Source: Candidatus Poribacteria bacterium (GTDB taxonomy: Bacteria; Poribacteria; WGA-4E; WGA-3G). From it: a stretch of 64,000 nucleotides of DNA. Where the stretch lies: the NCBI GenBank assembly GCA_965261115.1, contig OZ253447.1:2887625-2951624 (forward strand), in the 5' to 3' direction. A program made the translations under genes and the position numbers. Below the pieces are notes generated by a model. That model was not told the origin of the DNA and searched no databases. It was given only the letters and a program-made list of their open reading frames with translations. Shown one piece after another: positions 9,660 through 53,440 of the stretch (position 1 is its first letter; the number at the start of each line of letters is the position of its first letter).

Positions 9660-9705
9660 GCTTACTTCGCTTTTTAATCTCCTGCGTTTTCGGGCATTGC
9701 CAACA

Positions 9706-12983: not shown

Positions 12984-13053
12984 TAGTTGTTGAGCTTTCC
13001 TCCGAAATCTTTATACCTGAGAGGAAAGCTCGCTCCTATAAAGCTTAGTCAAT

Positions 13054-13848: not shown

Positions 13849-13864
13849 GATGTTCCCCTATGTT

Positions 13865-14890
13865 TTATCGTGCTAACTTTTGTTGTAGTTTTGGGCTATC
13901 TACGACCTCCCGATTCACAATCCACGATGGAATTTTCCCAGAAGCCACGTCGATAATACTCCTACACGCACTCTTGGCGTTGCCATCAAAACACTCATCT
14001 GTCCAGCAGATACTGTGCGGCGTAACGATAACGTTATCAAGGCTTAAAAGCGGGTCATCATCGCTAATCGGTTCCTGCTCAAAGACATCAAGTCCCGCCC
14101 CTTGGATATGTCGATTCTCAAGTGCCGCTGTGAGTGCCTTTTGATCGACGATTGGACCGCGCGCCGTGTTAATCAAGTAAGCCGTCGGCTTCATCAGTCC
14201 GATACGTCTCTCATTGACAAGTCCACGCGTCTCGTCGTTCAGTGGGCAGCAGACACACACAAAATCAGCGGTTCGCATCAAAGTGTCCAAGTCAACGAGT
14301 TCTACGCCAACTTCCGCTGCCTCAGCAGGTGTGACGTACGGATCGTAGGTAATGTGGTGCATCCCGAAAGGTTTCGCCAGTTTGAACGCCTCCTTTCCAA
14401 TGTTACCCATACCGACAAGTCCGAGTGTCCTGCCGACTAACCCCATTCCCCTGTAGTTTTGCGTGTTTCTCCAGCCACCAGAACGCGTAAGCCGATCCTT
14501 GATTAACAACTGATGGCTCAGCGATAAGACAAAAGTCATGATGGAGGTCGCAACCGGACGGCGAACACCATCTGGCGCGATTGTCAGCAGCACACCATTT
14601 TCCGTACAGGCTTCCACATCCACCTTATCGTACCCGACACCAAATCGAGCGATGACTGCCAACTTGTCAGCACCAGCGAACGTCTCCGCTGTAATGCCCG
14701 CGCCCAATACTAAGAGCGCATCATAATCCTGCACCTGTGTTGCTTGTAACACAGGTGTATTTTCTGCGATATACTCCCAGTGTAGACCGGCACCATCAAA
14801 AAGAGGACCGGCGATGTCGTCTAAATCGCAGGTGTCATCCGGACCCAGAAAGTCGCGCGTAACACCTACGCGAAATACAGATTTATCCAT
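13865..14890 (-). CDS. D-isomer-specific 2-hydroxyacid dehydrogenase family (NAD-binding).
   Basis: GLVGMGNIGKEAFKLAKPFGM Rossmann motif. Catalytic R/E/H region TPHSICWTDE. Confidence 0.85.
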   Translation of the reverse strand: MDKSVFRVGVTRDFLGPDDTCDLDDIAGPLFDGAGLHWEYIAENTPVLQATQVQDYDALLVLGAGITAETFAGADKLAVIARFGVGYDKVDVEACTENGVLLTIAPDGVRRPVATSIMTFVLSLSHQLLIKDRLTRSGGWRNTQNYRGMGLVGRTLGLVGMGNIGKEAFKLAKPFGMHHITYDPYVTPAEAAEVGVELVDLDTLMRTADFVCVCCPLNDETRGLVNERRIGLMKPTAYLINTARGPIVDQKALTAALENRHIQGAGLDVFEQEPISDDDPLLSLDNVIVTPHSICWTDECFDGNAKSACRSIIDVASGKIPSWIVNREVVDSPKLQQKLAR

Positions 14891-14907
14891 TGTTATTCCT
14901 ATTCAAT

Positions 14908-14998
14908 AGGACTTACGCAGCCCCGTTTGCAGGCGAGGTTTGAAACCCCGCCTGCATTGCGTGGAATGTCCATTATCATGGAAAAATACGTAAGTCCT
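14908..14998. repeat. Family-A MITE-like repeat (copy 2) with terminal inverted repeats AGGACTTACGCA / CGTAAGTCCT.
   Basis: TIRs and the GCAGGCG..GAAACCCCGCCTGC palindrome seen directly. Confidence 0.7.
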
Positions 14999-15007
14999 GT
15001 TCAATTT

Positions 15008-16600: not shown

Positions 16601-16917
16601 AAATTTCTCCGGTGTGTATTGAAAAAATATACTCCATAATACAGGCTTTTCTGCGAAATGTCAAGCCGACTTTTTTCTCACAACTGATAAATACCATCAT
16701 CTCTATGGTCTCTATACCCCCTTACGCCTACCGTACTACGGAGATTTGAAACCGCATTCGCCTAAAAATCGTTTTATTATAGGGCATAGTATCTCAATTA
16801 ATAGGTAGCGAATTCTGAATATCCGTAGTTCAAGGCATACGCGCGTTTTAAAGCATTACAGGTAAGACTATGGTGTAAATCTCCCGCTGTGAATACATCG
16901 CGTCCAAAAAATAAAAT

Positions 16918-19014: not shown

Positions 19015-19029
19015 CGACGCTATAGGATG

Positions 19030-30883: not shown

Positions 30884-32340
30884 TTTACGGATTGGAAGCC
30901 CGCTACTTCAGCGGGGGGAGGAAAATCCGCCCTCGTGGAAAGGACCAAAACGTTCCTTTTTTCTTGACATTCGGTCCAAGATTATGATACAATAATTCTA
31001 TCGTGTTGGCAGACATGTTTAGCATTACCGCTTGGTAATGTGTCTGCCTCCCACTAAACAGGGGATAAACGCACGATACACGATATACCATGAAATTAGC
31101 CTTTGAATATCCTGTATATCCTACAAAAACACAGGAACAAACATTGTTAAGATGGTTTGAGCACCTGTGTGAACTTCAGAACTCTGCGCGGAACAATCGC
31201 AAGTTTGCGCACGAGGCAGAAGGACGTTTTATTTCGCGATATGACCAGGAACAACTTTTGAAGATTGCCCGTGAGAAATATGACGATTTTCGGGAAGTCC
31301 CTCAAGATTTCCAAGTGTCTGTTCTCAAGCGTGTTGACAAAGCCTTTGATGCGTTCCGCAGACGGTGTAAAGAAGGCGCGGAGAAAAAGGGATACCCTCG
31401 CTACAAAAAGCGTGTGCGTTCTCTGACGTGGTGCTTGCGAAAGCACACACTCAAAACAGGTGAACGTGTCCGTCAAAACCCGATAAAAGAAACCGACTTT
31501 CGCCATAATCGCTTGAAAGTGCCCAAGTTGGGTGAAGTCAAGATACGCATGCACCGCCCACTTCAAGGTGACCCGAAAGAAGTGACGATCGTCAAAAAAG
31601 CAAGTGGTTGGTATGCCCATATTACTTGTGAACTCCCCGATACCCCGAAAGTTGAACCGACAGACGCACTTGCCGTTGACGTTGGCACGACACACTACCT
31701 AACGACTTCCGAAGGCGAAAAGGTAGAGAACCCGCGTTGGTATCGTCAATCAGAAGGCTTACTCCGAAAACATTCCAAAAGCCTTTCTCGAAAGAAAAAA
31801 AGTAGTCAGCGTTGGCAGAAACAACAACACACCCTCGCTTTGCACCATGAGCGAACTGTTAACAAACGCAAAGACTTTATCGGCAAACTCGTCTACAAAC
31901 TTTTTCATCATTGCGAAAATAACGTCCTGATCGCTGAAGACCTCAGCGTATCTAACATGGTTGAGAACAAACACCTCAGCAAGAGCATTTCGGATGCGTC
32001 TTGGGGGAAGTTCTTTGAGTGGTGTGGAAACATAGCCGAAAGAGACGGTTTCCACTTCCATCAAGTCGATCCCAAGCACACTTCGCAAACGTGTTCTGCT
32101 TGTGGTAAGAAGTCGCCGAAGAAACTTTCGTTGGCGATACGCACCTTTGATTGTAGTTTTTGTGGCAACTCTATAGATAGAGACCACAACGCTGCAATCA
32201 ACATACTTTTGCGGGCGGCTCGCGTCCATCGTGGAGAGCGTTGGGTTACTAACCTCTGTGAAACGAAAAACTTACCGGTAGACCGGTAGGAAACCTGTTA
32301 GCATTCTTAACAGGTTTCCCCCATGCTTTAGCTGGGGGTA
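30884..32340 (+). mobile_element. Second non-autonomous IS605-type element (tnpB only). Left end about 205 bp, homologous to copy 1. Two hairpins after the stop: GGAAACCTGTTA..TAACAGGTTTCC and CCCCCA..TGGGGG.
   Basis: Left-end identity blocks with 10533-10742. Promoter TTGACA-18-TACAAT at 30964-30993. Confidence 0.75.
31090..32289 (+). CDS. tnpB: TnpB (IS605 OrfB family), copy 2, catalytic residues intact.
   Basis: 399 aa. ALAVDVGTTHY, IAEDLSVSN, CSACGKK...CSFCGNSIDRDHNAAINI. About 75% identical to copy 1 over most of its length, with a divergent C-terminus. Confidence 0.9.
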   Translation: MKLAFEYPVYPTKTQEQTLLRWFEHLCELQNSARNNRKFAHEAEGRFISRYDQEQLLKIAREKYDDFREVPQDFQVSVLKRVDKAFDAFRRRCKEGAEKKGYPRYKKRVRSLTWCLRKHTLKTGERVRQNPIKETDFRHNRLKVPKLGEVKIRMHRPLQGDPKEVTIVKKASGWYAHITCELPDTPKVEPTDALAVDVGTTHYLTTSEGEKVENPRWYRQSEGLLRKHSKSLSRKKKSSQRWQKQQHTLALHHERTVNKRKDFIGKLVYKLFHHCENNVLIAEDLSVSNMVENKHLSKSISDASWGKFFEWCGNIAERDGFHFHQVDPKHTSQTCSACGKKSPKKLSLAIRTFDCSFCGNSIDRDHNAAINILLRAARVHRGERWVTNLCETKNLPVDR

Positions 32341-33082: not shown

Positions 33083-36000
33083 ATGGTAGAAAGCGATGTT
33101 CAACTGATTCGCAGAATCTTATCAGGCGATGACGCGGCGTTCAGCACCTTAGTCCAGAAACACCAAAAGAGCGTCCACGCGCTTATCTGGCGGAAGATTG
33201 GGGATTTCCATATTGCTGAAGAGATTACCCAAGACACTTTCCTCCGAGTATACAAGAGTCTCGCAACGCTCAAAGATCCCAATCTGTTTGCTGGATGGCT
33301 CTATGTTATCGCAAATCGGCTTTGCATTAATTGGAGCGAGAAAAACAATACAGCGATACAATCCTTGGAAGACACACCTATGGAAGACATAGAGGAATCC
33401 GCTTATACGCACTATCTGATAGAGCAACGCGAGGGGGAAGTCTCCGATTATCACTGCGAAATCGTCCAAAAACTGCTCCAGAAATTGCCAGAGAGTGAAC
33501 GCACAGTCGTGACACTCTACTATCTCGGTGAAATGACAGCGAAGGAAATCGCTAAGTTCTTAGGCGTATCCGTAAACACAATTAAAAGCCGGATTCGCCG
33601 AGCGCGAGCGCGTTTACAAAATCACGAAGAACTTTTGATCAGCGAAACACTTGGGAGTGTCCAATTACCTACCAACCTAACCGATAACATTATACAAGAG
33701 GTTGCCAACATAAAACAGACACCCGCTCCGGTTGGAAAACCCTTGCTGCCATGGGCGGCTTTTGGAACCGCTGCTGTTTTGGTCATGTTGTTGCTCGGTG
33801 TCAGCAATCAATATCTGACCCGTTTTCAGCAGCCATATAGTTTTGAAGCACAATCCGAACCCACAGTCGAAATCGTTGACGCACCTATCACACTCGATAT
33901 TGACGCAAAACCCGCTGTGCGAAATCAAGTTGGGCGTGCTTTTATCCCGGGCAACGGTAGTGGGAACGGCTTACAAGTTTCCGAGACAGTCTCATCAACC
34001 AATACGCTGGAAATTTCCCCTAAGTTTTCTACATCACAGTGGACTCAGGCAGATGGACCGCAAGGCAGCACCGTCTTTGACATCTTTGCTACATCTAAGA
34101 GGAGGCTTTACGCCATTACACCGTCAGGTATCTACAAACTAACACCCGATGCCACCGCGTGGACACTTACCAACACCAGCGTCCCCATTGGTGGATCGCG
34201 AATGCACATGGCAGAGCATGAAGACACGCTCTATATTGTTTCCGATGATGGCGTGTTCACTTCAACCGATGCTGGTGAGACGTGGAACGCATTTTGCCGC
34301 CGACCCAAAGGACATGCTGTCGGATTTATCATCACGGATGAAGCACAAGGACACGATTCACAAACACGTCTTGCAATGTATCTCGCACTTCAAGATAAAG
34401 GCGTTTTCCGATCTACTGATTCAGGGGCACAGTGGACGCTGCTTAACAATGGGTTGGAGAGTGAAAATGTCTTCGCAGTGACCGCAATTGGAAACACAGT
34501 ATTTGCTGGCACAAACAGAGGGCTTTACCGCCTCAATTCAAGGGCTTGGCAACAATTGCCTGTGGCTACATCCGAAGTTATTCATTCTTTAGTCGCACAT
34601 GAAAACAACCTCTATGTCGTGACGGGGCACGATCTTTTTACCTTGGGATTGCTTGAATCAAGACTAAAAGATGAAGGACAAATCGTCCGAGGCTACAACG
34701 CCAGTGCTAACAGACTCTTCCACTCAACTGATTTAGGAGCATCATGGACCGAGATAACACCTAAAAATAAATCTCCGTTTGCAAGAACACCAAAGGGTAT
34801 GAAGCTTATGGCTGCCGGTGATACACTCTTACTACTCGGTATCACCGAATTACGTTCAAGGGACAACGGGAGAACTTGGACAGACCTCGGATCCGATAGG
34901 AACCTGTTTACACAGGGGCGCTTCTCAACTGTAGCAATAGACGAGAATACGTTCTATAACGTTAGTGTATCCGGTGTCCATCGGACAATTGATGCGGGTG
35001 AGTCGTGGCAACCGTTTATGACCGGGATGGCAGGGACCAGAATGCTGGATTTAGTCGCGCTCAACGATAGACTCTACATGCATACCGGTAACGACGTTTT
35101 CCAATCAAGTGACGGCGGCGCGTCGTGGAAAAATGTTCCTATTAATTTGGGCGGCCCCACGCTTAAAGCCATAAAAAAGCGGCAGGCGCAAGGAAATTTC
35201 CCAATTGATTCAAGATTAGTAGCCGCTGACAACACGCTGTATGGGATCGTACCTACGGAACACGACCTACGCGTTTTCCATTTGCCGGTCAGTAACGATG
35301 CGTTCGTCCCTGTCCACAAGATACCCTCTTTGGTTGGAAGATCACCCTCCTCTAATGTGTGGACAAGAGAGGCTTTAGCCTTTAATGTGTGGACCAGCGT
35401 TGAAGAGGTGAATCAGGCACACATGACTGATGGTTCTGAAGAGACCGATAGCGTACCGGTTACGCTGTATTTTATGAAAAAACACTGGGAAGCCGGTGGG
35501 TTCGCAGTTAGAGACGGGACGTTCTACGCGGAGTGCCAACGGCGGCTTTTCAAATGGGAACCCGGCAGTCAAGAATGGAGAAATACCAAACTCATAGATA
35601 CCAGTGAACTGCCTGACAACGAATTAGATCACGGATTCAAGTTGGCGGTTTCAGCAGAAACCGTCTATGTCGGGAAACGGGATGGTAAACTCTTTCAATC
35701 GCTTGATGGTGGAGACACTTGGAAAGACCTGACATCAAGTCTTCCCCTTCATTTTACCCGTTTCAACGAGATAATCTGTGTAGGCGCAACGGTTTACGTC
35801 GCAACTGATGAAGGGGTCTTGTCCTCACAGAATGGAGAATACTGGCGCGTGGTAACCGATAAGATGAGTACACCTATCGTCATAGACAGATTCGCTGTAG
35901 ATGGCACTACGGTTTATGGTGCTGGCGATACGGGGGTCTATCACTTAAAAAGCGAATGGCAGCAGATTTCTCCAGAAGTTCCAGATAAAGTCATATCTCT

Positions 36001-36097
36001 CGTCGTTAGCAACGACAAACTTTACATTGCTACCGAACAGCACGGTCTATTTCACATCTCACTTGAAGCAGAAAAATGGGTAGGAGGAAAACCATGA
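33083..36097 (+). CDS. ECF sigma-70 factor fused to a single TM helix and a large extracytoplasmic BNR/Asp-box beta-propeller domain (Ycf48/sialidase-like).
   Basis: N-terminal sigma regions 2 and 4 (DFHIAEEITQDTFLRVY, LYYLGEMTAKEIAKFLGVSVNTIKSRIRRAR). TM LLPWAAFGTAAVLVMLLLGV. At least 7 SxDxGxTW/SW Asp-box repeats (STDAGETW, STDSGAQW, STDLGASW, SRDNGRTW, TIDAGESW, SSDGGASW, SLDGGDTW). Confidence 0.8.
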   Translation: MVESDVQLIRRILSGDDAAFSTLVQKHQKSVHALIWRKIGDFHIAEEITQDTFLRVYKSLATLKDPNLFAGWLYVIANRLCINWSEKNNTAIQSLEDTPMEDIEESAYTHYLIEQREGEVSDYHCEIVQKLLQKLPESERTVVTLYYLGEMTAKEIAKFLGVSVNTIKSRIRRARARLQNHEELLISETLGSVQLPTNLTDNIIQEVANIKQTPAPVGKPLLPWAAFGTAAVLVMLLLGVSNQYLTRFQQPYSFEAQSEPTVEIVDAPITLDIDAKPAVRNQVGRAFIPGNGSGNGLQVSETVSSTNTLEISPKFSTSQWTQADGPQGSTVFDIFATSKRRLYAITPSGIYKLTPDATAWTLTNTSVPIGGSRMHMAEHEDTLYIVSDDGVFTSTDAGETWNAFCRRPKGHAVGFIITDEAQGHDSQTRLAMYLALQDKGVFRSTDSGAQWTLLNNGLESENVFAVTAIGNTVFAGTNRGLYRLNSRAWQQLPVATSEVIHSLVAHENNLYVVTGHDLFTLGLLESRLKDEGQIVRGYNASANRLFHSTDLGASWTEITPKNKSPFARTPKGMKLMAAGDTLLLLGITELRSRDNGRTWTDLGSDRNLFTQGRFSTVAIDENTFYNVSVSGVHRTIDAGESWQPFMTGMAGTRMLDLVALNDRLYMHTGNDVFQSSDGGASWKNVPINLGGPTLKAIKKRQAQGNFPIDSRLVAADNTLYGIVPTEHDLRVFHLPVSNDAFVPVHKIPSLVGRSPSSNVWTREALAFNVWTSVEEVNQAHMTDGSEETDSVPVTLYFMKKHWEAGGFAVRDGTFYAECQRRLFKWEPGSQEWRNTKLIDTSELPDNELDHGFKLAVSAETVYVGKRDGKLFQSLDGGDTWKDLTSSLPLHFTRFNEIICVGATVYVATDEGVLSSQNGEYWRVVTDKMSTPIVIDRFAVDGTTVYGAGDTGVYHLKSEWQQISPEVPDKVISLVVSNDKLYIATEQHGLFHISLEAEKWVGGKP

Positions 36098-36774
36098 AAG
36101 TTTCAGTAAGCACGCTTCTGATCGCCTTACTTATGATACTCCCTCCCGCTTTCGCAGCGGCAGAAACCAAACAGACTTCTGACGTTACCAGTCTTTATCA
36201 CCTCGTCAACATCTTAGGCATTCAGGTATCGCTGGCGCGAATTGAAGACACTCTCACCGAGAAAAGTGAAGGACATCGGGTCGCCGGTTTCGCAACGCTC
36301 ATTGATGCCGCCAAGGAAATCGGACTCGAATTGCAAGAACGCAATCTCAATTACGAAGAACTTCGGAAGTTTAAAACGCCTGTCATCGCGCAGCTCAGGA
36401 CCACATTTGAGGACAAAGATCCGACAAATGTGGACCCTATCGCTGGGCATTTCATCGTCGTTGAGTATACAAACAAAAAATGGGTGCGCTTCTTTGATAC
36501 ACCAAACAGGTTTCTATATCAGGCAGCCACTGTTGTCTCTCGAGACCGATTTTTGGACCGCTGGACGGGACATGTCCTCGCACTCTCAGAAAACCAATGT
36601 CAGCAAAAACAACCGGTTTTAAATGCTTCACCCACGTTGCTGGATTTAGACGCCTTAATCACACTACAGCATGACCATGCCGATCCAGACTTAGCGGGAT
36701 ATCAATTCCCTGTCCGTCTTAAAAACCGAAGCGATATTCCGATACAAATCGTCGCTGTTGCATCTAATACGTGA
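36094..36774 (+). CDS. Secreted hypothetical protein, possibly peptidase C39-like fold.
   Basis: Signal peptide MKVSVSTLLIALLMILPPAFAAAE. GGAGGA RBS. Weak C39-like HF(I/V)VV motif. Confidence 0.35.
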   Translation: MKVSVSTLLIALLMILPPAFAAAETKQTSDVTSLYHLVNILGIQVSLARIEDTLTEKSEGHRVAGFATLIDAAKEIGLELQERNLNYEELRKFKTPVIAQLRTTFEDKDPTNVDPIAGHFIVVEYTNKKWVRFFDTPNRFLYQAATVVSRDRFLDRWTGHVLALSENQCQQKQPVLNASPTLLDLDALITLQHDHADPDLAGYQFPVRLKNRSDIPIQIVAVASNT

Positions 36775-36831
36775 CATACCGTCGTCGCTAAACCTAAAGC
36801 AGATGTCATCCCTGCAGGGAAAAACGCTGTT

Positions 36832-37563
36832 TTGGGAATCGGTTCGACTGCAGTTGCAGTCCACAGGACCTCTTTTATGACTGTCCATGTTCAGACAGAT
36901 TCACCACAACGACCGTTCACTTTTATCTCTTTCGGACGCGCAAGGGAATTCCCTGTCGTCTTCGTCCCTGAGAACATCTATGTGGAAAGTACCGGGACAT
37001 CGCAACCCAAGAAAACCGCCGGACTTAAAAACCCTCGTGAGACGGCTCTAATGATTCAGAATATTAAAAGTTCACAGGAATGGATTCAGCCTGTTCTCCG
37101 CGGTGACAACGTCGTTTATCCATGGCGCACTGCTGATATTGAGTTGAATTTTGAAGCCGAGCAGATGCCCAAAGGAAATTTTAACGAGAAACTCACAGTT
37201 GAATATATTGACCACAAAGGCGAAATAAGGACCATCAAATTACCGATCTCTGGAGACGGAAGTCAAGTCTATACACTCGCGCCCGAACGTTTTTTCTTCG
37301 GACAAGTTAATTCCGGCGAGGAAAATACGAAAGTATTGGTACTGAAGAATCTGACGAGCACTGAGCTCCAGATCGAAAAAACCGAAACCGATATCGGAAC
37401 AATTACAGTAAAAAGACAAGAGAACAGTAACAACTATCAATTAACGCTAACGTTGCCATCGGTTTTAACAAAAGGCATCCTGAAAAGCGAAGTTCGACTC
37501 CGGACGAACCACCCAAAGATGCCTATTATCAAGATACCAATTTTTGCATTTGTCACAAAGTAG
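36832..37563 (+). CDS. Hypothetical secreted protein (Ig-like, DUF1573-like?).
   Basis: 243-aa ORF. Beta-rich composition. No confident family. Confidence 0.35.
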   Translation: MGIGSTAVAVHRTSFMTVHVQTDSPQRPFTFISFGRAREFPVVFVPENIYVESTGTSQPKKTAGLKNPRETALMIQNIKSSQEWIQPVLRGDNVVYPWRTADIELNFEAEQMPKGNFNEKLTVEYIDHKGEIRTIKLPISGDGSQVYTLAPERFFFGQVNSGEENTKVLVLKNLTSTELQIEKTETDIGTITVKRQENSNNYQLTLTLPSVLTKGILKSEVRLRTNHPKMPIIKIPIFAFVTK

Positions 37564-37609
37564 AAGCATTCTGTATCCAAATTTCTGAAAATAAGTAAGG
37601 AGTTATCCG

Positions 37610-39250
37610 ATGCAATATCTCAGAGGTACATTTCTAATAATTCTCATTGGCATTTTAATAATTCCAATCATGCTATCCGCAGCACCGCATGAACCCTCGC
37701 CTGCAGGCGGCGGTTGGCTTGAACTGAATCCCAAACTCGGGCAACTCCAAACGGACGCACCTTGGTTGCCCGAGCTTACCGAGCCGCTCACAATTGAAGC
37801 GTGGATCTACGTAGACGAGACATTGCCTAAGCAAGTCCGCTTTTCTCTCGTCGGTCAAACGGACCGATTCAGCTGCTTTATGATTGGACTGCCTGTGGAC
37901 GAAGATAGAGATAATGTGATGGATACCCGACTCGGTATCCTTTCCAATGGGACTAAAGAACCTTCAATGGTGACGAAAATGGAAAGTCTGCCGATCCGTC
38001 AGTGGGTGCATTATGTCGCGACAATCGACCGCGGTGCTGCTATCGGCAGCGACGGTCTTATTAGAGGAGGTGGCCCGGATGGGAGCGAACTGCCAGTGCC
38101 AAATGAGAATCGTCTTGTGCTTGGTGGTATGCCAACTCTGACGAATCTGCCAGCACCCCTGGGTGACAAAATGCGTTTCGCTTCAGGCGTTTATATTGAT
38201 GAGCTGCGGATTAGCACCGTTGTTCGCTATAAAGGAGACTACGACGTGCCGACACACGCGTTCACCGCAGATACGGACACCATAGGACTCTATCATTTCG
38301 ATGAAGTGTCAAAACAACGCTATGAAGATAGTTCAAATTCCCAGATTCCCTTAATCCGAAATGAGATAGATCCTGAGATGCTTGCGAAGATTGAGGCAGC
38401 GACAGCCTCACCTGTACTGCCAAAAAGTGAAGCGGAGCTGCTGCAACTTATCCGCGAAGGGATTACCTACTACGATAGCCTGCTTGAAAGCGGACGCGTT
38501 GACTTTCTGCGAGAGACTACCAGTGTTGCCTCTGATGGGAACCCTATGGGACGCGCCCCCAGTGGTACCTGGAAGGGGACTTTCGAGTTTTCAGGACGCA
38601 AAATGAGATGCCGCGTGACACGAGATGTTATTCAGTACGATTCTGACCGAAACATTCCAATTACGGGAACAGAGCAATACGCTTATGATGGTGAAACATT
38701 TGAGAGACTCCGGAAAACATTTAACGGTATTGTACTGAGTCGCAGAAGCGAAATCGTCGATGACCCGTCTAATGATCCACGCCTCTGGGGATGGGATCTC
38801 AGTGGTGGGAAAGATTCTCTCACCATGCTTATTGATGGACTTGATATCGAAAGTATTAAAGAGGTGCGTTTCAACGAGAGTGATGTTTATCATATCAAAG
38901 GAAATGCGTTTGGTTTCGCGATGGAATTGTGGCTGAACCCAAAGAAAAGTTATCGACCCGAACGCGTTATGTCTGCTCAACCCATGATTGCCATGACGAG
39001 GGATTTCAAGTTCAAAGAGGTCGCACCCGATCTCTGGTTCCCAGAATCTGCAAAGGGGGTTATGACTGTAACCGATATGAAGACCGGCATGAAAACCGAC
39101 ATCACGACCACAACGATACAATTCACAAACATTCAGGTTAACGACCCTATTCCTGACTCCCGATTTTCCATTGAACCACCCCCCGGGGCAACAGTGTATG
39201 ATATGCGGACTCGAGAAAGTTTTGAAGTCCCAGCGGAGAAAAACAAATGA
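37610..39250 (+). CDS. Secreted two-domain protein, paralog 1 of 3: N-terminal LamG(Laminin_G_3)-like domain + C-terminal LolA-like domain.
   Basis: Signal peptide. LamG_3 blocks (LTIEAWIYVDE, RQWVHYVATIDRG, LVLGG, YIDELRIS). C-terminus ELWLNPKK...FSIEPPPGATVYD resembles the LolA/RseB-type ends (LWVKRPN...FTFTPPQGVTVDD). Confidence 0.6.
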   Translation: MQYLRGTFLIILIGILIIPIMLSAAPHEPSPAGGGWLELNPKLGQLQTDAPWLPELTEPLTIEAWIYVDETLPKQVRFSLVGQTDRFSCFMIGLPVDEDRDNVMDTRLGILSNGTKEPSMVTKMESLPIRQWVHYVATIDRGAAIGSDGLIRGGGPDGSELPVPNENRLVLGGMPTLTNLPAPLGDKMRFASGVYIDELRISTVVRYKGDYDVPTHAFTADTDTIGLYHFDEVSKQRYEDSSNSQIPLIRNEIDPEMLAKIEAATASPVLPKSEAELLQLIREGITYYDSLLESGRVDFLRETTSVASDGNPMGRAPSGTWKGTFEFSGRKMRCRVTRDVIQYDSDRNIPITGTEQYAYDGETFERLRKTFNGIVLSRRSEIVDDPSNDPRLWGWDLSGGKDSLTMLIDGLDIESIKEVRFNESDVYHIKGNAFGFAMELWLNPKKSYRPERVMSAQPMIAMTRDFKFKEVAPDLWFPESAKGVMTVTDMKTGMKTDITTTTIQFTNIQVNDPIPDSRFSIEPPPGATVYDMRTRESFEVPAEKNK

Positions 39251-39449
39251 TGTGTTCCAGTTTGCTTTCGCCACAAAGTGGGAGCGTTTCGCCTCTGAAC
39301 TCTCTAAAAATACCTAAGGAAACGTGAGTTTGAAGAAAAAAATGATTTATCACGTAACCCAACAACCCAACGCTGTCAGGGTGAGAATGCGTCCACTTTC
39401 CAGTAACGAACAAGACCATCGTCAGTGAAATGAAAGGAGGGTCAATCCG

Positions 39450-39902
39450 ATGACTCGCTTAAATTTAACGTTAATTTTCCTTGTATGCGTCCTTGCGTCT
39501 ATTGGCATCGTCTTTGCACAAGATGACTTTTCACAACAGGGTGGCACCGTCCGCGGACAGATTGTTGATACAACTGAAAGGCAGATGCCGATTGAAGGGG
39601 TTAGAGTCGTCATTGTCGCTACAGATGGTACGGAATTTGAAACAACGACGGATGCCAATGGTGAATATGAAAAATCAGGTATTCCCGCAGGCCGCTATCT
39701 CATCAGTATCTATAAAGACGAATACGGTGATCGACTGGGGAAACCTGTAACAATTGCTAATGGCGGTGATCATTATGTCCCGCTGAAAATGACCAAAAAG
39801 AACACTATCCTTGACTTTTTCCAAAGTTCCGTGCCCATGTACTGGGTGCTGATCCTCTGTGTTATCATAGTGATTTTAATTTTCTCACGCACAAATCGAT
39901 GA
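39450..39902 (+). CDS. Carboxypeptidase-regulatory-like (CarbopepD_reg) domain protein with a C-terminal TM anchor.
   Basis: GTVRGQIVD...GVRVVIVATDGTEFETTTDANGEYEKSGIPAGRYLISI pattern. Signal peptide and C-terminal hydrophobic helix. Confidence 0.65.
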   Translation: MTRLNLTLIFLVCVLASIGIVFAQDDFSQQGGTVRGQIVDTTERQMPIEGVRVVIVATDGTEFETTTDANGEYEKSGIPAGRYLISIYKDEYGDRLGKPVTIANGGDHYVPLKMTKKNTILDFFQSSVPMYWVLILCVIIVILIFSRTNR

Positions 39903-40035
39903 CACACCAGAGGCATTCAGTTAGCAACAGTTGGCTCTCTGAAACCGGAAATCTGCAAAGATTCTCAATCAAAAAAGAAACGTTTAATTTTCTATATGCC
40001 GACCCTCAAATAATTATTGTCTAAGGAACTATCCC

Positions 40036-41667
40036 ATGAAATACATCAGATGTCCATTCCTAATCATTCTAATCGGCATTTTAATGATGCCGACCATACT
40101 ATTCGCAACACCCCACGAACCCTCGCCTGCAGGTGGCAGTTGGCTTGAACTGAATCCCAAACTCGGGCAAGTCCAAACCGATGCGCCTTGGTTCCCCGAA
40201 CTCACTGGAATGCTTACAATTGAAGCGTGGATCTACGTAGACGAGCCATTGCCGAAGCAAATTATCTTTTCTCTCGTCGGTCAAACAGACCGTTTTAACT
40301 GTTGTATAGAGGGAACGCCTATGGACCAGGACAAAAATGGTGCCCTTGATACACGGATCGGGATCTTGTCCCAAGGAACCGCTGAACATTCAGGAACGAT
40401 GGTCGGAATCCTGCCGGTGCGTCAGTGGGTACATTACGTGGTAACAATTGACCGAGGTGCCGCTGTTGGACGCGACGGTTATATTGCAGAAGGAGTTAAT
40501 GGGAGCGAACTGCCAGCCCCAAATACGAATCCTCTTGTGCTTGGAGGTATTCCAGTTATATCGGGAATCCCAATGCCTAGATTCAAAGCGCGTTTCGCTT
40601 CAGGCATCTATATTGACGAGTTGAGAATCAGCAGCGTTGTCCGTTATAAAGGCAAATACGATGTACCAACAAATGCGTTTACCGCAGATGCGGATACCAT
40701 AGGACTCTATCACTTTGATACACCGTCAGATCAACGCTATGAAGATAGCTCAAGTTACAAGGTACCGTTAGTCCGCGGTGAAATAGATCCTGAGATTCTC
40801 GCGAAGAGTGAAGAAACAACAAAAACGCCGCTGTCAAAAAGCGAAGAAGAGTTATTGCAACTCATTCGTGAAGGAGTCGCCTATTACGATAGCCTGCTTG
40901 AAAGCGGACGTGTTGATTTTCTTCGGGAGACCACCAGTGTTGCATCTGATGGGCTATCGGGGATGAGACGTGCTCCCATTGGTACTTGGAAGGGAACTTT
41001 CGAGTTTTCGGGACGCAAAATGAGATGCATTGTGACACGAGATGCTATTCAGTACGACCCGGACCGAAATATACCGATTACGGGGACACAACAATACGCT
41101 TACGATGGTGAAACCTTTGAGCGACTTCGAGACACATTCAATGGTATAGTGTTAAGTCGCAGAAGCAAAATCGTCGATGACCCGTCTGATGATCCACGCT
41201 TCTGGGGATGGAATCTCAGTGGTGGGGAAAAATCTCTCATCATGCTCATTGATGAACTTGATATCGAAAGTATTAAAGAGGTGCGTTTCAACGAGAGTGA
41301 TGTCTATCATATCAAAGGAAATGCGCACGGTCTCGCGATGGAATTGTGGCTGAACCCAAAGAAAAACTATCGACCCGAACGTTATATGTTTGCTCAACCT
41401 ATGCTTGCTGTGATAAAGGATTTCAAATTCAAAGAAGTGGCACCCGACCTCTGGTTCCCAGAATCTGGCAAGTGGGTTACGGCTATAACCGATGCCCAGA
41501 CAGGCACAAAAACTGATGTTACGACCACGACCATGCAATTCACAAATATTCGGATTAACGAACCTATCCCTGAATCCCGATTTTCCATTGAACCACCCTC
41601 TGGTGCAACAGTATTCGACATGCGGACCCAAGAAAGCTTTGAAGTCCCAGCGGAAAACAACAAATGA
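40036..41667 (+). CDS. Secreted LamG-like + LolA-like protein, paralog 2 (most divergent in the central region).
   Basis: Collinear with 37610 and 41883 proteins. Conserved TAAGGAACTATCCCATG start context. Confidence 0.6.
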   Translation: MKYIRCPFLIILIGILMMPTILFATPHEPSPAGGSWLELNPKLGQVQTDAPWFPELTGMLTIEAWIYVDEPLPKQIIFSLVGQTDRFNCCIEGTPMDQDKNGALDTRIGILSQGTAEHSGTMVGILPVRQWVHYVVTIDRGAAVGRDGYIAEGVNGSELPAPNTNPLVLGGIPVISGIPMPRFKARFASGIYIDELRISSVVRYKGKYDVPTNAFTADADTIGLYHFDTPSDQRYEDSSSYKVPLVRGEIDPEILAKSEETTKTPLSKSEEELLQLIREGVAYYDSLLESGRVDFLRETTSVASDGLSGMRRAPIGTWKGTFEFSGRKMRCIVTRDAIQYDPDRNIPITGTQQYAYDGETFERLRDTFNGIVLSRRSKIVDDPSDDPRFWGWNLSGGEKSLIMLIDELDIESIKEVRFNESDVYHIKGNAHGLAMELWLNPKKNYRPERYMFAQPMLAVIKDFKFKEVAPDLWFPESGKWVTAITDAQTGTKTDVTTTTMQFTNIRINEPIPESRFSIEPPSGATVFDMRTQESFEVPAENNK

Positions 41668-41711
41668 TGTGTTCCAGTTGCTTTCGTCACAAAGTAGGAG
41701 CATTTCGCGTC

Positions 41712-41860
41712 TGAACCATAAGCGTCAATTTAAAAAAAATAACCGCTTCGGTCCCAGACCCGGTAGGTTCGGTTTCCTAACCGAACCGGAACTTAAGCAC
41801 AAACTTTTCATAACCCAAAAATCCTCTTGAGTTCCGTAGGAACGGTATGTTTATAGAATA
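41712..41860. repeat. Family-B/C REP-like composite repeat (ACCATAAGCGTCAATTTAA ... CCCGGTAGGTTCGGTTTCCTAACCGAACCGG ... GTTCCGTAGGAACGGTATGTTTATAG).
   Basis: Near-collinear with 55570-55705. Hairpins carry compensatory changes. Confidence 0.65.
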
Positions 41861-41882
41861 AAAATGCGTAAGGAACTATCCC

Positions 41883-43514
41883 ATGCAATATATCAAAGAC
41901 ACATTCCTAATCATTCTAATCGGCATTTTAATGACGCCGACCATATTATTCGCAACACCCCACGAACCCTCTCCTGCGGGTGGCGGTTGGCTTGAACTAA
42001 ATCCTAAACTCGGGCAAGTCCAAACGGATGCACCTTGGTTGCCCGAGCTTACCGGGACGCTCACGATTGAAGCGTGGATCTACGTAGACGAGACGTTACC
42101 CAAGCAAGTCACCTTTTCTCTCGTCGGTCAAACAGACCGATTCAGCTGCTTCATGACTGGAATTCCTGCAGACGAAAATAGAGATAATGTGATGGATACT
42201 CGGATCGGTATCCTTTCCAATGGGACTAAAGACCCTTCAATGGTGACGGACACAGACCATCTACCGATTCGTCAGTGGGTGCATTATGTCGCGACAATCG
42301 ACCGCGGTGCTGCTATCGGCAGCGATGGGCTTATTTTAGAAGGTGGAAGTGATGGGAGCGAACTGCCAGTGCCAAATGAAAATCGGCTTGTGCTTGGTGG
42401 TATGCCAACTTTGACGAAACTGCCAGCACCCCTGCTGGGTGACAAAATGCGTTTCGCTTCAGGAGTCTATATTGACGAACTAAGAATCAGCGGCGTTGTC
42501 CGTTACAAAGGCAACTACGATGTGCCGACAAAGGCATTCACCGCAGATACTGATACTATAGGACTCTATCATTTCGATGAAGGCTCAAAACAACGTTATG
42601 AAGATAGCTCAAATTCCCAGATTCCCTTAATCCGCAGTGAGATAGATCCTGAGATGCTTGCGAAGATTGAGGCAGCGACAGCTTCGCCTGTGCTACCAAA
42701 AAGCGAAGAAGAGCTGCTTCAGCTGATCCGCGAAGGGATTGCCTATTACGATAGCCTGCTTGAAAGCGGACGCGTCGATTTTCTTCGCGAGACTACCAGC
42801 GTCGCCTCTACTGTGATCCCTCCTGAACTCGGACGTTTCCCCAGTGGTACTTGGAAAGGAACTTTCGAGTTTTCGGGACGCAAAATAAGGGGCATTGTGA
42901 CGCAAGATGTTATTCAGTACGAGCCTGACCGAAACATTCCAATTAAAGGCACAGAGCAGTACGCGTATGATGGCGAAACATTTGAAACACTCCGAAATAC
43001 ATCTCACCATACTTTGTTGGAACGAAGAAGCGAAGTCGTCCATGATTCATTTGATGATCCACGCTTCTGGGGATGGAATCTCAGCGGTGGGGATAGGTCT
43101 CTTATAATGATTATTGATGGACTTGAGATCGAAAGTATTAAAGAGGTGCGTTTCAATGATAGTGAAGTCTATCATATCAAAGGAGATATGTTTGGTGGTA
43201 CTATAGAATTGTGGCTGAATCCTAAAAAAAGTTACCGACCCGAACGCTTTAGGAGTTCTAATCTCATGCTTTCGATGACAAAGGATTTCAAGTTCAAAGA
43301 GGTCGCACCCGACCTCTGGTTCCCGGAATCCGCCAAGTGGATTGACACCATCGCGAAAATCAATATTAGAACCACAACCGTGCAATTCACAAACATTCGG
43401 ATTAACGAACCTATCCCTGAATCTCGGTTTTCCATTGAACCACCCCCTGGCGCAACAGTGTTCGACATGCGAACCCGAGAAAGTTTTGAAATCCCAGCGG
43501 AGAAAAGTAAATGA
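41883..43514 (+). CDS. Secreted LamG-like + LolA-like protein, paralog 3 (closest to paralog 1, short deletion near the C-terminus).
   Basis: About 80% identical to the 37610 protein. Confidence 0.6.
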   Translation: MQYIKDTFLIILIGILMTPTILFATPHEPSPAGGGWLELNPKLGQVQTDAPWLPELTGTLTIEAWIYVDETLPKQVTFSLVGQTDRFSCFMTGIPADENRDNVMDTRIGILSNGTKDPSMVTDTDHLPIRQWVHYVATIDRGAAIGSDGLILEGGSDGSELPVPNENRLVLGGMPTLTKLPAPLLGDKMRFASGVYIDELRISGVVRYKGNYDVPTKAFTADTDTIGLYHFDEGSKQRYEDSSNSQIPLIRSEIDPEMLAKIEAATASPVLPKSEEELLQLIREGIAYYDSLLESGRVDFLRETTSVASTVIPPELGRFPSGTWKGTFEFSGRKIRGIVTQDVIQYEPDRNIPIKGTEQYAYDGETFETLRNTSHHTLLERRSEVVHDSFDDPRFWGWNLSGGDRSLIMIIDGLEIESIKEVRFNDSEVYHIKGDMFGGTIELWLNPKKSYRPERFRSSNLMLSMTKDFKFKEVAPDLWFPESAKWIDTIAKINIRTTTVQFTNIRINEPIPESRFSIEPPPGATVFDMRTRESFEIPAEKSK

Positions 43515-44632
43515 TGTCTTTCAGACGCATCGTTAAAAAAATATTGTCTACAAACTACGCATTTTACTGCGCTTTGCTAAGTGCAGCATTTCTTTTCATA
43601 GGACAACCAACCGTAGCACAACCACCAGTAATTGAACCACACCTGCTTTCTGACGAAGCCGCACAACTGTTGGAGCACATCAAAACGAAAGCAGCCGAAT
43701 ATGACGCACAATTCAAAAGCGGTGAGGTCGAATTCTCGATCACGCTACATCAAAAAATTCCGCAAAGAACGGACATCTTTGAAGACCTTTTAGGATGGTT
43801 TCAGAATACCCTGATGCGAACGCCGAAAGAAGAAAAAGTCCCATCGTATGAAGAGAAGGGGGTTTGGGACATCATCTACCGATTTGATGGCGAACGCGAA
43901 TTTTACGATGTTAAAGCACGTAAGAAGATGGAACTCGACGGAAGACCGCTCCGAGATTGGCAAGAGACGCACTATCAATATCTGATAGACGGCAAAACGC
44001 TGCGTATGCGCAAACGTACCGGTAGTGGATGGAAACGGGACCCACGACAAGCAACGTCATCGCAGCTTTTTGAAGACAAGTTTAATCCGCGTTGGTGGGG
44101 CAGGCTTCCACACGGACTCACCTTTCGCAGCTTCATTCGCAAACACGATCCGATTGATGTTAAAACCGTTGAAACCGACGGCACGCGAGACCACTACCTC
44201 AGACTTTACAGAAAAGCGCAACAAGGATCTGACAAAGCTTGGACTCACGAAATCTGGATACATCCGCAGAAGGATTACCACGCCACTCGTGTGATACAAT
44301 ACGGACGACTGGCTACAGAAATTGACCCACAAGGCACACTGAAAGAAGCATTTTTCCTGACCCGTAAGACCTATCAACTGACACAATATGAACCGGGAAT
44401 ATGGTTTCCGAAAACCGTCACCCAAGAACACTTTAACGGAGGTCTTATGGAAGAAATCCTCCCAGACACCCCAGAATCTGAACACCCTATGATTATGAGC
44501 GAAGCACTCATTCCGCAGTCGTTCCGCGAAGATAAACTTACATGGCCCCGGATGAAGATAACCATGCAAGTACAACGCGCCGCCTTCAATATCCCGATCG
44601 CGGAGGAAGACCTACGTTTTTCAAACGAATAG
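43511..44632 (+). CDS. Secreted LolA-like domain protein (no LamG domain).
   Basis: Signal peptide. IWIHPQKDYHATRV and YEPGIWFPKT blocks parallel the paralog C-terminal domains. Confidence 0.45.
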   Translation: MMSFRRIVKKILSTNYAFYCALLSAAFLFIGQPTVAQPPVIEPHLLSDEAAQLLEHIKTKAAEYDAQFKSGEVEFSITLHQKIPQRTDIFEDLLGWFQNTLMRTPKEEKVPSYEEKGVWDIIYRFDGEREFYDVKARKKMELDGRPLRDWQETHYQYLIDGKTLRMRKRTGSGWKRDPRQATSSQLFEDKFNPRWWGRLPHGLTFRSFIRKHDPIDVKTVETDGTRDHYLRLYRKAQQGSDKAWTHEIWIHPQKDYHATRVIQYGRLATEIDPQGTLKEAFFLTRKTYQLTQYEPGIWFPKTVTQEHFNGGLMEEILPDTPESEHPMIMSEALIPQSFREDKLTWPRMKITMQVQRAAFNIPIAEEDLRFSNE

Positions 44633-44961: not shown

Positions 44962-44990
44962 TTGACAAACCTAAATTTATATGGTAGTAT
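44962..44990 (+). promoter_or_regulatory. Sigma70-type promoter TTGACA-17-TAGTAT upstream of recJ.
   Basis: Consensus -35 with a 5/6 -10. Confidence 0.45.
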
Positions 44991-52818: not shown

Positions 52819-53403
52819 ATGCATTCTGAAGAATTGATTGACGCGAGTGATGCTGAACTGGTCGTCGTCGCACTTGCCGGTAATACACAGGCTTTTGATG
52901 TATTAGTGACCCGCTATCGACGGGCTATGTTGACTGTGGCACAACAGATTGTCCGAAATTCCGCAGACGCGGAAGATGTCGTACAGGATGCACTTTTGCG
53001 GGCTTTTGAGGCATTACCACAACTCTCAGATTTGAATCGGTTCGGCGCGTGGCTGCATTCAATTACCCGAAACCGTGCCTTGCGTTACTACAGAAATGCC
53101 AGTCGCTATCAACCCCAGGAGGATATGGAGCCACACCTCAATAGAGTCTCCGATACATCGGCGGCGGATCCCGCCCGCATTGTGGAAAGCGAATCGACGC
53201 AGCAGGCTGTTCGAGATGCTATTCAGAGCATGCCCGCAGACTATCAGGCAGTTATCGAACTCTATTACTGGGCAGAAATGCCCCAAAAACGGATGGCTGA
53301 ATTCCTTTCCCTGCCCCTCACGACTGTAAAATGGCGGCTTCGTAAGGCGAAAGAGATGCTAAAAGCAAATTTAGAAAAACTCGGCTACGGCGAAGATGTG
53401 TGA
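52819..53403 (+). CDS. ECF-subfamily RNA polymerase sigma-70 factor.
   Basis: Region 2 (DAEDVVQDALLRAF) and region 4 (ELYYWAEMPQKRMAEFLSLPLTTVKWRLRKAK). 194 aa. Confidence 0.85.
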   Translation: MHSEELIDASDAELVVVALAGNTQAFDVLVTRYRRAMLTVAQQIVRNSADAEDVVQDALLRAFEALPQLSDLNRFGAWLHSITRNRALRYYRNASRYQPQEDMEPHLNRVSDTSAADPARIVESESTQQAVRDAIQSMPADYQAVIELYYWAEMPQKRMAEFLSLPLTTVKWRLRKAKEMLKANLEKLGYGEDV

Positions 53404-53440
53404 CAAACTTTAGGAAACTTACTTATGAACCCATACGGAG

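Follow-up and report, generated by a model that had tools for sequence, protein, structure and literature searches.

Downstream of a gene for a membrane-tethered ECF sigma factor, a sponge-symbiont Candidatus Poribacteria encodes a set of exported proteins built around a ~300-aa domain, here termed X, which structure prediction confirms as an enlarged LolA-superfamily half-barrel about twice the size of LolA. Comparisons of encoded proteins show that in other Poribacteria the predicted extracytoplasmic domain of this sigma family is X, not the propeller. A search of 1.84 billion representatives gave 67 clusters of X homologs, and all genome loci with X (56/56) come from Candidatus Poribacteria, to which the domain appears essentially confined. 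The X domain is probably part of a lineage-specific envelope-sensing pathway.

The operon and its tethered sigma factor

The genes form a plus-strand run, from the sigma fusion gene to the X-only gene, at 33083-44632 of the window (the whole 64,000-nt stretch analysed):

33083-36097, + strand: ECF sigma factor (Sigma70_r2/r4) with a TM helix and a BNR/Sortilin-type propeller, 1004 aa
36094-37563, + strand: single exported gene with signal peptide, C39-like papain-fold and DUF1573/Ig-like domains, and one in-frame TGA
36076/36094-36774, + strand: Peptidase_C39-like ORF, alternative starts 36076 or 36094
36772-36774, + strand: in-frame TGA, candidate selenocysteine or programmed readthrough codon, identical position in most orthologs
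36793-36836, + strand: conserved RNA hairpin, candidate bacterial SECIS-like element, ~20 nt 3' of the UGA
36832-37563, + strand: DUF1573 ORF
37610-39250, + strand: LamG-X paralog 1, 546 aa
39261-39283, + strand: duplication scar, relic of the DUF1573 gene 3' end (TTTGCTTTCGCCACAAAGTGG, compared with TTTGCATTTGTCACAAAGTAG at 37543-37563)
39450-39902, + strand: CarboxypepD_reg protein, 150 aa, Pfam E 3.8e-13
40036-41667, + strand: LamG-X paralog 2, 543 aa
41883-43514, + strand: LamG-X paralog 3, 543 aa
43511-44632, + strand: X-only protein, 373 aa
44722-44739, + strand: terminator-like hairpin at the operon end (consensus scan only)
44962-44990, after the terminator-like hairpin: sigma70-like promoter for recJ (consensus scan only)

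ORFs and Pfam matches bear out the gene order of a sequence-only reading of this DNA, which had placed the cluster downstream of an ECF sigma-TM-BNR fusion. The whole operon lies on one strand, with intergenic gaps of 47-216 nt where genes do not overlap and ATGA overlaps at the sigma/C39 junction (ATG 36094 overlaps the sigma stop) and the paralog 3/X-only junction, where start and stop overlap by 4 nt. By consensus scan, the sole terminator-like site within the operon lies 3' of the X-only gene; recJ and relA follow directly. In orthologous loci, LamG-X copies are spaced by only ~20 nt. This layout suggests that the sigma fusion gene and the genes for its exported partners are probably co-transcribed, and from it we infer co-regulation of the cluster with the sigma fusion. 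A promoter search upstream of the genes returned candidate motifs and established no ECF-type promoter; one motif chosen post hoc, G[GA]AAC-N15-17-TC..AA, is present seven times against 1.9 expected, and its conservation was looked for in orthologous loci and not found.

The sigma fusion is a membrane-tethered ECF sigma factor with a periplasmic BNR β-propeller. Residues 1-182 hold sigma2/sigma4 (NCBIfam TIGR02937, 88.5 bits against a cut-off of 42.9) and are followed by a ~40-aa linker and one TM helix (~residues 222-245); between sigma4 and the TM helix there are only those ~40 aa and no recognisable anti-sigma domain. The juxtamembrane motif PYSFEAQSEPTVEIVD is conserved, and the extracytoplasmic part is a ~700-aa BNR/Asp-box β-propeller region. 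Pfam matches are Sigma70_r2, Sigma70_r4_2, BNR, Sortilin-Vps10 and DUF6242, and the propeller matches the NCBIfam F510_1955 family glycosylhydrolase at 131 bits, under the cut-off of 175.

Orthologs of the fusion occur in ~20 Poribacteria loci. The order sigma-TM-propeller, C39-like, DUF1573, one to four LamG-X copies, an optional X gene and recJ (L002-5, L041, L043-L056, L058/59) is kept in ~20 species-level genomes with 70-90% protein identity. Four species besides these encode sigma-TM-X as a single ORF of 594-625 aa (L021, L026, L027 and L028), as does P0201, and in the syntenic P0130/L001 sigma-TM runs into the X-only gene through an independent in-frame deletion of window positions 33900-43598. 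Association with the ECF sigma factor is thus stronger than first proposed, resting on synteny, recurrent fusion and one in-frame deletion. A further locus (L007) carries TM-XA followed by XB and then directly a stand-alone ECF sigma gene. Across loci, X is partnered with LamG, a C39-like domain, ECF sigma-TM or another X domain, and in L009-L024 there are many C39-like-X fusions at a great distance from any sigma gene; therefore, X is not exclusively sigma-linked.

The X domain and the LamG-X paralogs

X forms the ~300-aa C-terminal domain of each LamG-X paralog. Paralog 1 begins with a signal or anchor, followed by Laminin_G_3, a linker helix and an A-type X; the X-only protein consists of a signal peptide and a B-type X that is 25-27% identical to the last ~300 aa of the paralogs (tblastn E 6e-6 to 8e-9). 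The AF2 model of the X-only protein (pLDDT 85.5, pTM 0.80, 13 predicted strands) matched DUF1329 (4z48, E 4e-6) and LolA structures (E 2e-4 to 3e-2, probability ~1) in Foldseek. In the paralog model the C-terminal half is confident and the LamG part has pLDDT 25-55; its X domain matched DUF1329 (E 2e-7), more than 20 LolA/LolB/LprG structures, and MucB at E 1.3e-3 with a TM-score of 0.24. The LolA-like assignment of the C-terminal domain is therefore upheld by two independent models, with Foldseek probability 1.0 to DUF1329, LolA, LolB and LprG. Profile searches did not carry it: X falls under every Pfam and NCBIfam threshold, LolA_like and DUF2092 match only below the Pfam threshold (E 0.01-0.06), and X has no MucB_RseB Pfam match.

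As claimed, there are three paralogs in tandem (543-546 aa), although their pairwise identities (76.3%, 81.9% and 73.4%) span 73-82% rather than 60-80%. The predicted Laminin_G_3 domain of each paralog exceeds the Pfam gathering cut-off of 27.6 bits, with scores of 31.7-34.2, and its fusion to a LolA-like domain, flagged as unusual, was found only in Poribacteria. Across the paralogs dN/dS is ~0.23, which argues that all are maintained. Copy number varies from one to four with mosaic recombination between copies, and the DUF1573 3'-end relic recurs after paralog 2 (41678-41704) and in intergenic regions of three orthologous loci (L041, L044, L048). The conserved start context is present at all three paralogs: TAAGGAACTATCCCATG precedes paralogs 2 and 3 without a mismatch and paralog 1 with three mismatches (3 matches against 0.08 expected). 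As a regulatory motif it was rejected, being merely an AAGGA ribosome-binding site copied with the duplication.

The CarboxypepD_reg protein described among the paralogs is indeed there and bears a signal peptide as well as a TM helix at its C terminus, but is absent from every orthologous locus examined: tblastn of 57 related loci gave no match, and L058/L059 lack the gene. By this comparison the gene was inserted in this genome only, as an accessory outside the conserved operon.

A C39-like/DUF1573 gene with an in-frame TGA

What had been counted as two further secreted proteins is one gene. The C39-like and DUF1573 ORFs share a reading frame with only TGA 36772-36774 between them, uninterrupted homologs of 474-484 aa combine PF03412 and PF07610 in one protein, dN/dS directly past the TGA is 0.17, equal to the flanks, and no conserved start codon downstream of the TGA was found in orthologs; together these observations argue for a single gene across the TGA. 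Of 18 orthologous loci, 16 have the TGA at exactly this position (GGA in one, a deletion in one), and its context, N-T-[TGA]-H-T, corresponds in alignment to N-C-x-C-T in DUF1573 homologs, making it a candidate selenocysteine or readthrough site. The hairpin at 36793-36836 has an MFE z-score of -2.5 and a consensus structure kept in 16 orthologs, two pairs showing compensatory changes; as a candidate SECIS-like element it overlaps coding sequence, and the evidence is modest. The Peptidase_C39 match scores 35.9 bits against a cut-off of 22; throughout the TGA clade the catalytic Cys of the C39-like domain is replaced by Ser, and the His motif GHFIVVE is retained.

Possible roles and comparison with known systems

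The direct fusion of X to sigma-TM suggests that X would give this sigma family a ligand-binding module for sensing or regulation, and by analogy with LolA, LprG and RseB a hydrophobic ligand would be expected. We tentatively read the locus as a lineage-specific operon for extracytoplasmic signalling, with the LamG-X and X-only proteins as sensing partners of the tethered sigma factor. These proteins could act in trans as co-receptors, binding glycan via LamG and a lipid-like ligand via X, and may gate the proteolysis that frees the sigma domain from the membrane, analogous to RseB/MucB control of RseA/MucA cleavage and IutY-type regulated intramembrane proteolysis; copy-number variation and paralog recombination would diversify ligand specificity. 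Counting against signalling, the resemblance to MucB is weak, and neither a second RseB-type domain nor a recognisable anti-sigma domain is present.

A somewhat unlikely alternative is that the LamG-X and X-only proteins are effectors switched on by the sigma factor, not regulators, serving as periplasmic or surface lipid or lipoprotein carriers (LolA/LprG-like) or as LamG-mediated sponge-glycan matrix binders that remodel the envelope or mediate host contact. ECF sigma operons commonly contain their own target genes, the predicted fold of X is that of the LolA/LolB/LprG carriers, LamG_3 is lectin-like, variable copy number with mosaic recombination is typical of surface or ligand-binding families, and numerous C39-like-X genes lack a neighbouring sigma gene. 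However, this leaves unexplained why at least five independent genomes carry X, covalently attached, in the propeller's place on this sigma family, and the paralogs lack a lipobox and outer-membrane or secretion signals. Improbable is a glycan-sensing operon, resembling ECF-sigma/anti-sigma control of polysaccharide utilisation loci, in which the glycoside-hydrolase-like propeller and LamG recognise host or algal polysaccharide and X is only a scaffold or dimerisation domain. The subthreshold F510_1955 match, the BNR/Sortilin models and a LamG_3 in every paralog fit such sensing, but the conserved operon has no transporter, SusC/D-like or CAZyme genes before recJ and relA, no module is more conserved or more widely recombined than X, and X occurs without LamG in the older TM-XA and XB arrangements. 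Chance proximity of a lineage-specific paralog expansion to a sigma gene, with no functional link, is very improbable and already disfavoured: the array is variable (0-4 copies), wholly deleted in L001 and interrupted by an unrelated gene in this window, but gene order and protein identity are conserved across ~20 species-level genomes in overlapping or tightly spaced genes, and sigma-TM-X fusions recur.

For extracytoplasmic signalling, the closest functional parallel may be RseB/MucB, which in the periplasm regulate the sigmaE anti-sigma factor RseA/MucA and gate its cleavage. The X proteins are likewise exported, with a predicted LolA-like fold, and their genes share an operon with that of an ECF sigma factor held by a membrane tether that must be cleaved; by this analogy they may work alike, and we infer an RseB-like sigma-regulating role. 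Unlike RseB/MucB, X lacks the two-domain RseB architecture, and the operon has no separate anti-sigma factor. As in LolA, LolB, LprG and DUF1329 (Pfam clan LolA_LolB; 4z48, 2w7q, 7z6w, 8orn, 3mh8), X is modelled as a long antiparallel β-sheet that does not close, preceded by a helix at the N terminus, and the motifs W-[LI]-x-P-x-K-x-Y-R-P and P-x-(I/L)-W-F-P in its C-terminal region align weakly with the profile ends of LolA_like, DUF2092 and TIGR00547. It differs from this superfamily in length (~300 against ~180 aa), with TM-scores of only 0.4-0.58, and lacks a LolCDE/LolB context.

The LamG part resembles the concanavalin-like Laminin_G_3 lectins (PF13385), nearly all of the 120 listed LamG-X homologs scoring above the Pfam threshold. 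The C39-like domain shares its Pfam match and GHFIVVE His motif with the C39 and C39-like domains (CLD) of ABC exporters; theirs are cytoplasmic, whereas this one is exported, has Ser for the catalytic Cys and is unattached to an ABC transporter. A Sec form of DUF1573 with a UGC motif is listed in prokaryotic selenoproteome surveys (PMC9312934, PMC13188914), and the conserved in-frame UGA in the Cys motif region of DUF1573 makes the present protein a similar Sec candidate, with the motif T-U-H-T rather than U-G-C and a fused C39-like domain. In the paper that classifies ECF sigma factors (PMC7826278), none of the terms BNR, propeller, LolA and Poribacteria appears in the main text. The sigma fusion shares with IutY (ECF243), SCO4117 (ECF52) and ECF48/53 the combination of sigma2-sigma4, TM helix and extracytoplasmic domain in one polypeptide, and activation by proteolysis has been shown or proposed for the sigma/anti-sigma fusions IutY and ECF48/52/53 (PMC8999054). 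In contrast to these, the Poribacteria fusion is without a FecR-like or zinc-finger anti-sigma domain, and its predicted sensor is a BNR propeller or X.

A conserved operon behind a tethered ECF sigma factor

An unbroken series of genes on the + strand runs from 33083 to 44632 and opens with a sigma fusion, in which an ECF sigma factor, a transmembrane (TM) helix and a BNR propeller are joined in one polypeptide. Its members are:

33083-36097, + strand, sigma fusion of 1004 aa: by Pfam, ECF sigma regions 2 and 4 and a BNR/Sortilin-type propeller region, with a single TM helix between them
36094-37563, + strand, a Peptidase_C39-like ORF followed by a DUF1573 ORF
37610-39250, + strand, paralog 1, 546 aa: LamG followed by a C-terminal LolA-like domain, X
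between paralogs 1 and 2, + strand, a CarboxypepD_reg ORF of 150 aa
40036-41667, + strand, paralog 2, 543 aa, LamG-X
41883-43514, + strand, paralog 3, 543 aa, LamG-X
43511-44632, + strand, an X-only ORF of 373 aa, whose start overlaps the paralog 3 stop by 4 nt

The sigma part is an ECF (group 4) sigma factor by its Pfam domains (Sigma70_r2, E 4e-11; Sigma70_r4_2, E 7e-18), and TIGR02937 scores 88.5 bits on it against a cut-off of 42.9 (NCBIfam). The three tandem paralogs described in the sequence-only reading are real, with pairwise identities of 76.3%, 81.9% and 73.4%, and the X-only protein is homologous to their C-terminal ~300 aa at 25-27% identity. The start context said to be common to all three matches exactly ahead of paralogs 2 and 3 but carries three mismatches ahead of paralog 1; it is an AAGGA ribosome-binding site duplicated along with the gene.

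A tblastn survey of the window proteins against all related loci retrieved recovered the order sigma-TM-propeller, C39-like, DUF1573, one or more LamG-X genes, an optional X-only gene and then recJ in about 20 species-level genomes, with the genes 3' of the sigma gene overlapping or tightly packed on the same strand. The number of LamG-X genes varies among these loci (L numbers):

one copy: L003-5, L043, L046, L049, L050, L053, L054, L056
two copies: L002, L041, L047, L048, L052, L055, L058/59
three copies: the window
four copies: L044

The CarboxypepD_reg gene, present among the paralogs in the window as first read, is missing from all orthologous loci and is therefore ruled out as a component of the conserved system. 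A terminator-like hairpin follows the X-only gene only. Co-regulation of these genes is best inferred from this operon structure rather than from a defined promoter. A block upstream of the sigma gene is conserved, and a search for ECF promoters gave, post hoc, the motif G[GA]AAC-N15-17-TC..AA ahead of the sigma gene and of paralogs 2 and 3; the motif is missing from the orthologous intergenic regions, some of which span only ~20 nt, and was rejected as an ECF promoter. Sigma70-type sites were not enriched (13 vs 18.9 expected).

In neighbour-joining trees the three window copies group with copies from other genomes and not with each other, which makes the paralog lineages old, with differential loss since. 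The LamG and X trees conflict: the closest pair in the window is paralogs 1 and 3 by LamG (87.6%) but paralogs 1 and 2 by X (81.4%), a conflict that points to recombination between paralogs. Remnants of the DUF1573 gene's 3' end lie after paralogs 1 and 2, and also in other genomes; they mark the unit of tandem duplication. Pairwise dN/dS of the paralogs is about 0.23 (LamG 0.17-0.33, X 0.18-0.27), and purifying selection acts on all copies. Positive selection was considered and rejected, as pairwise and sliding-window dN/dS stayed at or below 0.8 throughout.

Several further features of the window lie outside this operon:

550-914, + strand, T-box leader match (Rfam), at the gathering threshold (93.1 against 93 bits)
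10743-12038, + strand, a second TnpB-like ORF, adjoining a truncated ECF sigma paralog
12007-12312, - strand, the truncated ECF sigma paralog, 101 aa, sigma region 2 only, 55% identical to the operon's sigma
31090-32289, + strand, an IS605 OrfB/TnpB-type gene (OrfB_IS605 and a Cas12f1-like TNB domain) between GBBH-like and ferredoxin genes
52846-53421, + strand, a separate, stand-alone ECF sigma gene sharing 28% identity with the sigma of the operon

Segment 30877-32343 is missing from the syntenic locus L001, so that the IS605-type gene is an insertion upstream of the operon relative to L001 and stands outside the system. The truncated sigma paralog looks like a sigma-fusion gene severed by a mobile element, and the T-box leader match precedes a 558-aa ORF (989-2665). 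The sigma gene at 52846-53421 is followed by a DUF4097 protein in syntenic loci, forming an ordinary sigma/putative anti-sigma pair that is conserved downstream in most orthologous loci.

Fold, architecture and distribution of domain X

AlphaFold2 modelled the 373-aa X-only protein from a 56-sequence alignment (21-92% identity) with a pLDDT of 85.5 and a pTM of 0.80; the model has a helix at the N-terminus and, after it, some 13 long strands in antiparallel arrangement. Foldseek searches of the PDB with this model returned a DUF1329 protein first (4z48, E 4e-6) and LolA of several species at E 2e-4 to 3e-2 with a probability of ~1. The separately built model of paralog 1, confident from residue ~270, agreed and with stronger scores, matching DUF1329 (E 2e-7) and more than 20 chains of LolA, LolB and LprG with a probability of 1.0; its match to MucB was more remote (E 1.3e-3, TM 0.15-0.24). 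TM-scores of X against the matched folds reach just 0.4-0.58, since X is almost double LolA in size. The C-terminal half-barrel proposed from the sequence is thus present in both models and matched by Foldseek, and the predicted membership of X in the LolA/LolB/RseB-like fold superfamily stands, at superfamily level.

Assignment to any one known family fails at the level of sequence models. On the paralogs' C-termini, LolA_like (PF17131) and DUF2092 (PF09865) score 13-16 bits, below their Pfam cut-offs of 30 and 21.2, and such sub-threshold matches occur in just 4/56 and 3/56 X-family members; LolA TIGR00547 scores 18.5 against a cut-off of 112. MucB_RseB has no Pfam match in the window proteins or the 56 family members, which lack the two-domain RseB/MucB architecture, and a PDB-sequence profile search with the X alignment found nothing relevant beyond one spurious helix match. 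X is therefore neither LolA proper nor RseB proper by these tests, and Pfam holds no model for its family. The profile check suggested for both halves of the paralogs accordingly bears out LamG_3 but not LolA_like: Laminin_G_3 (PF13385) scores 31.7-34.2 bits in all three paralogs, above the Pfam gathering threshold of 27.6, and is precomputed for nearly all homologs listed.

The LamG half is poorly modelled in the full-length paralog 1 model (pLDDT 25-55) because the alignment was shallow, all rows but one being 74-89% identical to the query; Foldseek matches of this half to neurexin and laminin LG domains have probabilities of just 0.1-0.28. An invariant PAGG-G/S-W motif near the N-terminus was considered as a double-glycine leader cut by the C39-like protein and rejected, since it suits the start of the LamG_3 domain, is missing from TM-XA and XB, the older forms (A-type and B-type X domains), and would face a C39-like domain without its Cys.

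Family members combine X with varied partners:

with LamG, as in the window
preceded by a TM anchor at the N-terminus plus a linker, in proteins of about 390-410 aa (P0222 and others)
as the sole domain (B-type)
as a tandem X-X pair (P0140)
after a degenerate C39-like domain, in proteins of about 472 aa (23 of the 56 aligned members, e.g. P0180)
behind an ECF sigma factor and TM helix

Among the best 120 of 222 paralog 1 homologs, all are at least 73% identical and every one with a named source comes from Candidatus Poribacteria. A survey with one genome for each GTDB species gave 56 loci, in Poribacteria in all but three, those being 'uncultured bacterium' MAGs, and searching all 1.84 billion representative proteins by HMMER with the X profile yielded only about 67 clusters. 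The X family is therefore narrow and specific to one lineage.

An in-frame TGA in the C39-like/DUF1573 gene

The two further secreted proteins reported downstream of the sigma fusion turn out to be one gene, whose C39-like and DUF1573 ORFs lie in the same frame, parted solely by a TGA at 36772-36774. This codon occupies the same position in 16 of 18 orthologous loci (GGA in one, a deletion in one). The 20 codons after it evolve at a dN/dS of 0.17, against 0.17-0.18 in the flanks, and the orthologs have no conserved start codon or RBS downstream of it. More distant poribacterial homologs are single proteins of 474-484 aa with C39 and DUF1573 domains; their N-C-x-C-T aligns with N-T-[TGA]-H-T, so that, without a one-residue shift of the alignment, the UGA falls opposite the x in C-x-C. 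A conserved hairpin (36793-36836, 21-65 nt after the UGA) with two compensatory pairs and a variable apical loop, a candidate SECIS-like element, lies within the coding sequence. TGA is also the ordinary stop of the paralogs in the same operon. No tRNA-Sec occurs in the window or the related loci, which is uninformative since they hold no tRNA of any kind.

A selenocysteine (Sec) form of DUF1573 with a UGC motif is already catalogued (PMC9312934, PMC13188914), Sec-containing hydrogenases are reported from Poribacteria MAGs (PMC13582414), and SelA/SelB have been reported in sponge-symbiont bins (PMC5649159). Together, the conservation of the TGA, the constraint around it, the uninterrupted homologs, the hairpin and the loss of Cys from the part before the TGA indicate, from comparative sequence, that the codon is decoded, with selenocysteine or programmed readthrough the likely means. 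The gene caller splits the gene into two in L058/L059, and its annotation as two genes is probably an error shared by many MAGs.

The motif of the C39 catalytic Cys could be read in 14 of the 17 clade loci, the window included, and all of these have Ser in its place ((T/A/S/P)-S-D vs A-C-G), while the His is retained; the Cys/His dyad of Peptidase C39 is thus absent from the TGA clade. The part before the TGA is otherwise Cys-free in 16/17 orthologs. In the uninterrupted distant homologs the catalytic Cys (A-C-G) is intact.

Association of X with the sigma factor and comparison with known systems

X and the propeller interchange on the sigma tether. In L021, L026, L027 and L028, and likewise in P0201, a paralogous sigma-TM region is joined straight to X in a single ORF of 594-625 aa. 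L001 belongs to a genome syntenic with the window and has lost, in frame, exactly the segment matching window 33900-43598; gone with it are the C39/DUF1573 gene, the propeller and every LamG-X gene, and sigma-TM now runs straight into the X-only gene, giving P0130 (L001 10001-11836). Of all the evidence that X works together with this sigma family and serves as its sensor domain, these sigma-X fusions weigh most. L007 carries a TM-XA and XB pair followed directly by a stand-alone ECF sigma gene. Two side observations concern these loci: a LamG-only gene and two unknown ORFs are inserted upstream of the L001 sigma gene (7274-9962), and L028 holds three tethered ECF sigma genes of the sigma-fusion family within about 11.5 kb (9065-20525), one sigma-TM-X and two sigma-TM-propeller, indicating lineage-specific expansion.

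Propeller-type and X-type fusions (window, L021, L026-L028) share the juxtamembrane motif PYSF(E/Q)AQ(S/L)(E/D)PT(V/I)EIVD, a candidate cleavage or docking site, which in the window reads as follows:

33750-33830, + strand, PYSFEAQSEPTVEIVD, periplasmic, sigma fusion residues ~248-268

We hypothesize that X binds a ligand, probably hydrophobic, and serves as a sensing or regulatory module, with the LamG-X and X-only proteins acting in trans on the tethered sigma factor. By analogy with RseB/MucB, which gates cleavage of RseA/MucA, these proteins could gate proteolytic release of sigma, while LamG would contribute glycan recognition and paralog diversity would contribute specificity. Comparable gating has been proposed for sigma/anti-sigma fusions (PMC8999054). 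We advance this model tentatively, as a possibility that falls somewhat short of an even chance. Its main rival, that the LamG-X and X-only proteins are instead the sigma factor's output, as lipid carriers or host-binding proteins, is somewhat less likely. A broader reading of the sensing model is more doubtful still: X would represent a hitherto undescribed kind of extracytoplasmic sensor on membrane-tethered ECF sigma factors, within a whole signalling cascade unique to sponge symbionts, in which trans-acting LamG-X and X co-receptors bind a host-derived glycan or lipid cue and the Cys-free, Sec-containing C39-like/Ig protein is the site-1 protease or redox partner that frees the sigma domain.

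Poribacteria are uncultivated, widespread sponge symbionts, and the operon is a concrete, testable candidate for how they sense their host. Every component falls in a known superfamily. As far as the literature consulted shows, the enlarged LolA-like domain, its LamG fusion and the conserved operon are undescribed, as is a LolA-like domain forming the extracytoplasmic part of a tethered ECF sigma factor. The system offers a one-polypeptide ECF sigma factor whose outer domain can be either a BNR propeller or an enlarged LolA-like fold, together with lectin-LolA-like fusion proteins in a variable array, and it widens the tie of the LolA/RseB fold to ECF sigma control beyond Proteobacteria, into a new architecture.

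The C39-like/DUF1573 gene resembles DUF1573-type selenoproteins in that its in-frame UGA is conserved and is flanked on either side by coding constraint. Like RseB/MucB, X proteins are encoded in the operon of an ECF sigma factor, although they lack the MucB_RseB two-domain architecture. Just ~40 residues separate the end of sigma4 (~182) from the TM helix (~222), with no Pfam match to an anti-sigma domain (FecR-like or ZAS) between them, and in lacking a recognisable anti-sigma domain the window's sigma fusion differs from the IutY/ECF243 and ECF52-type sigma/anti-sigma fusions.
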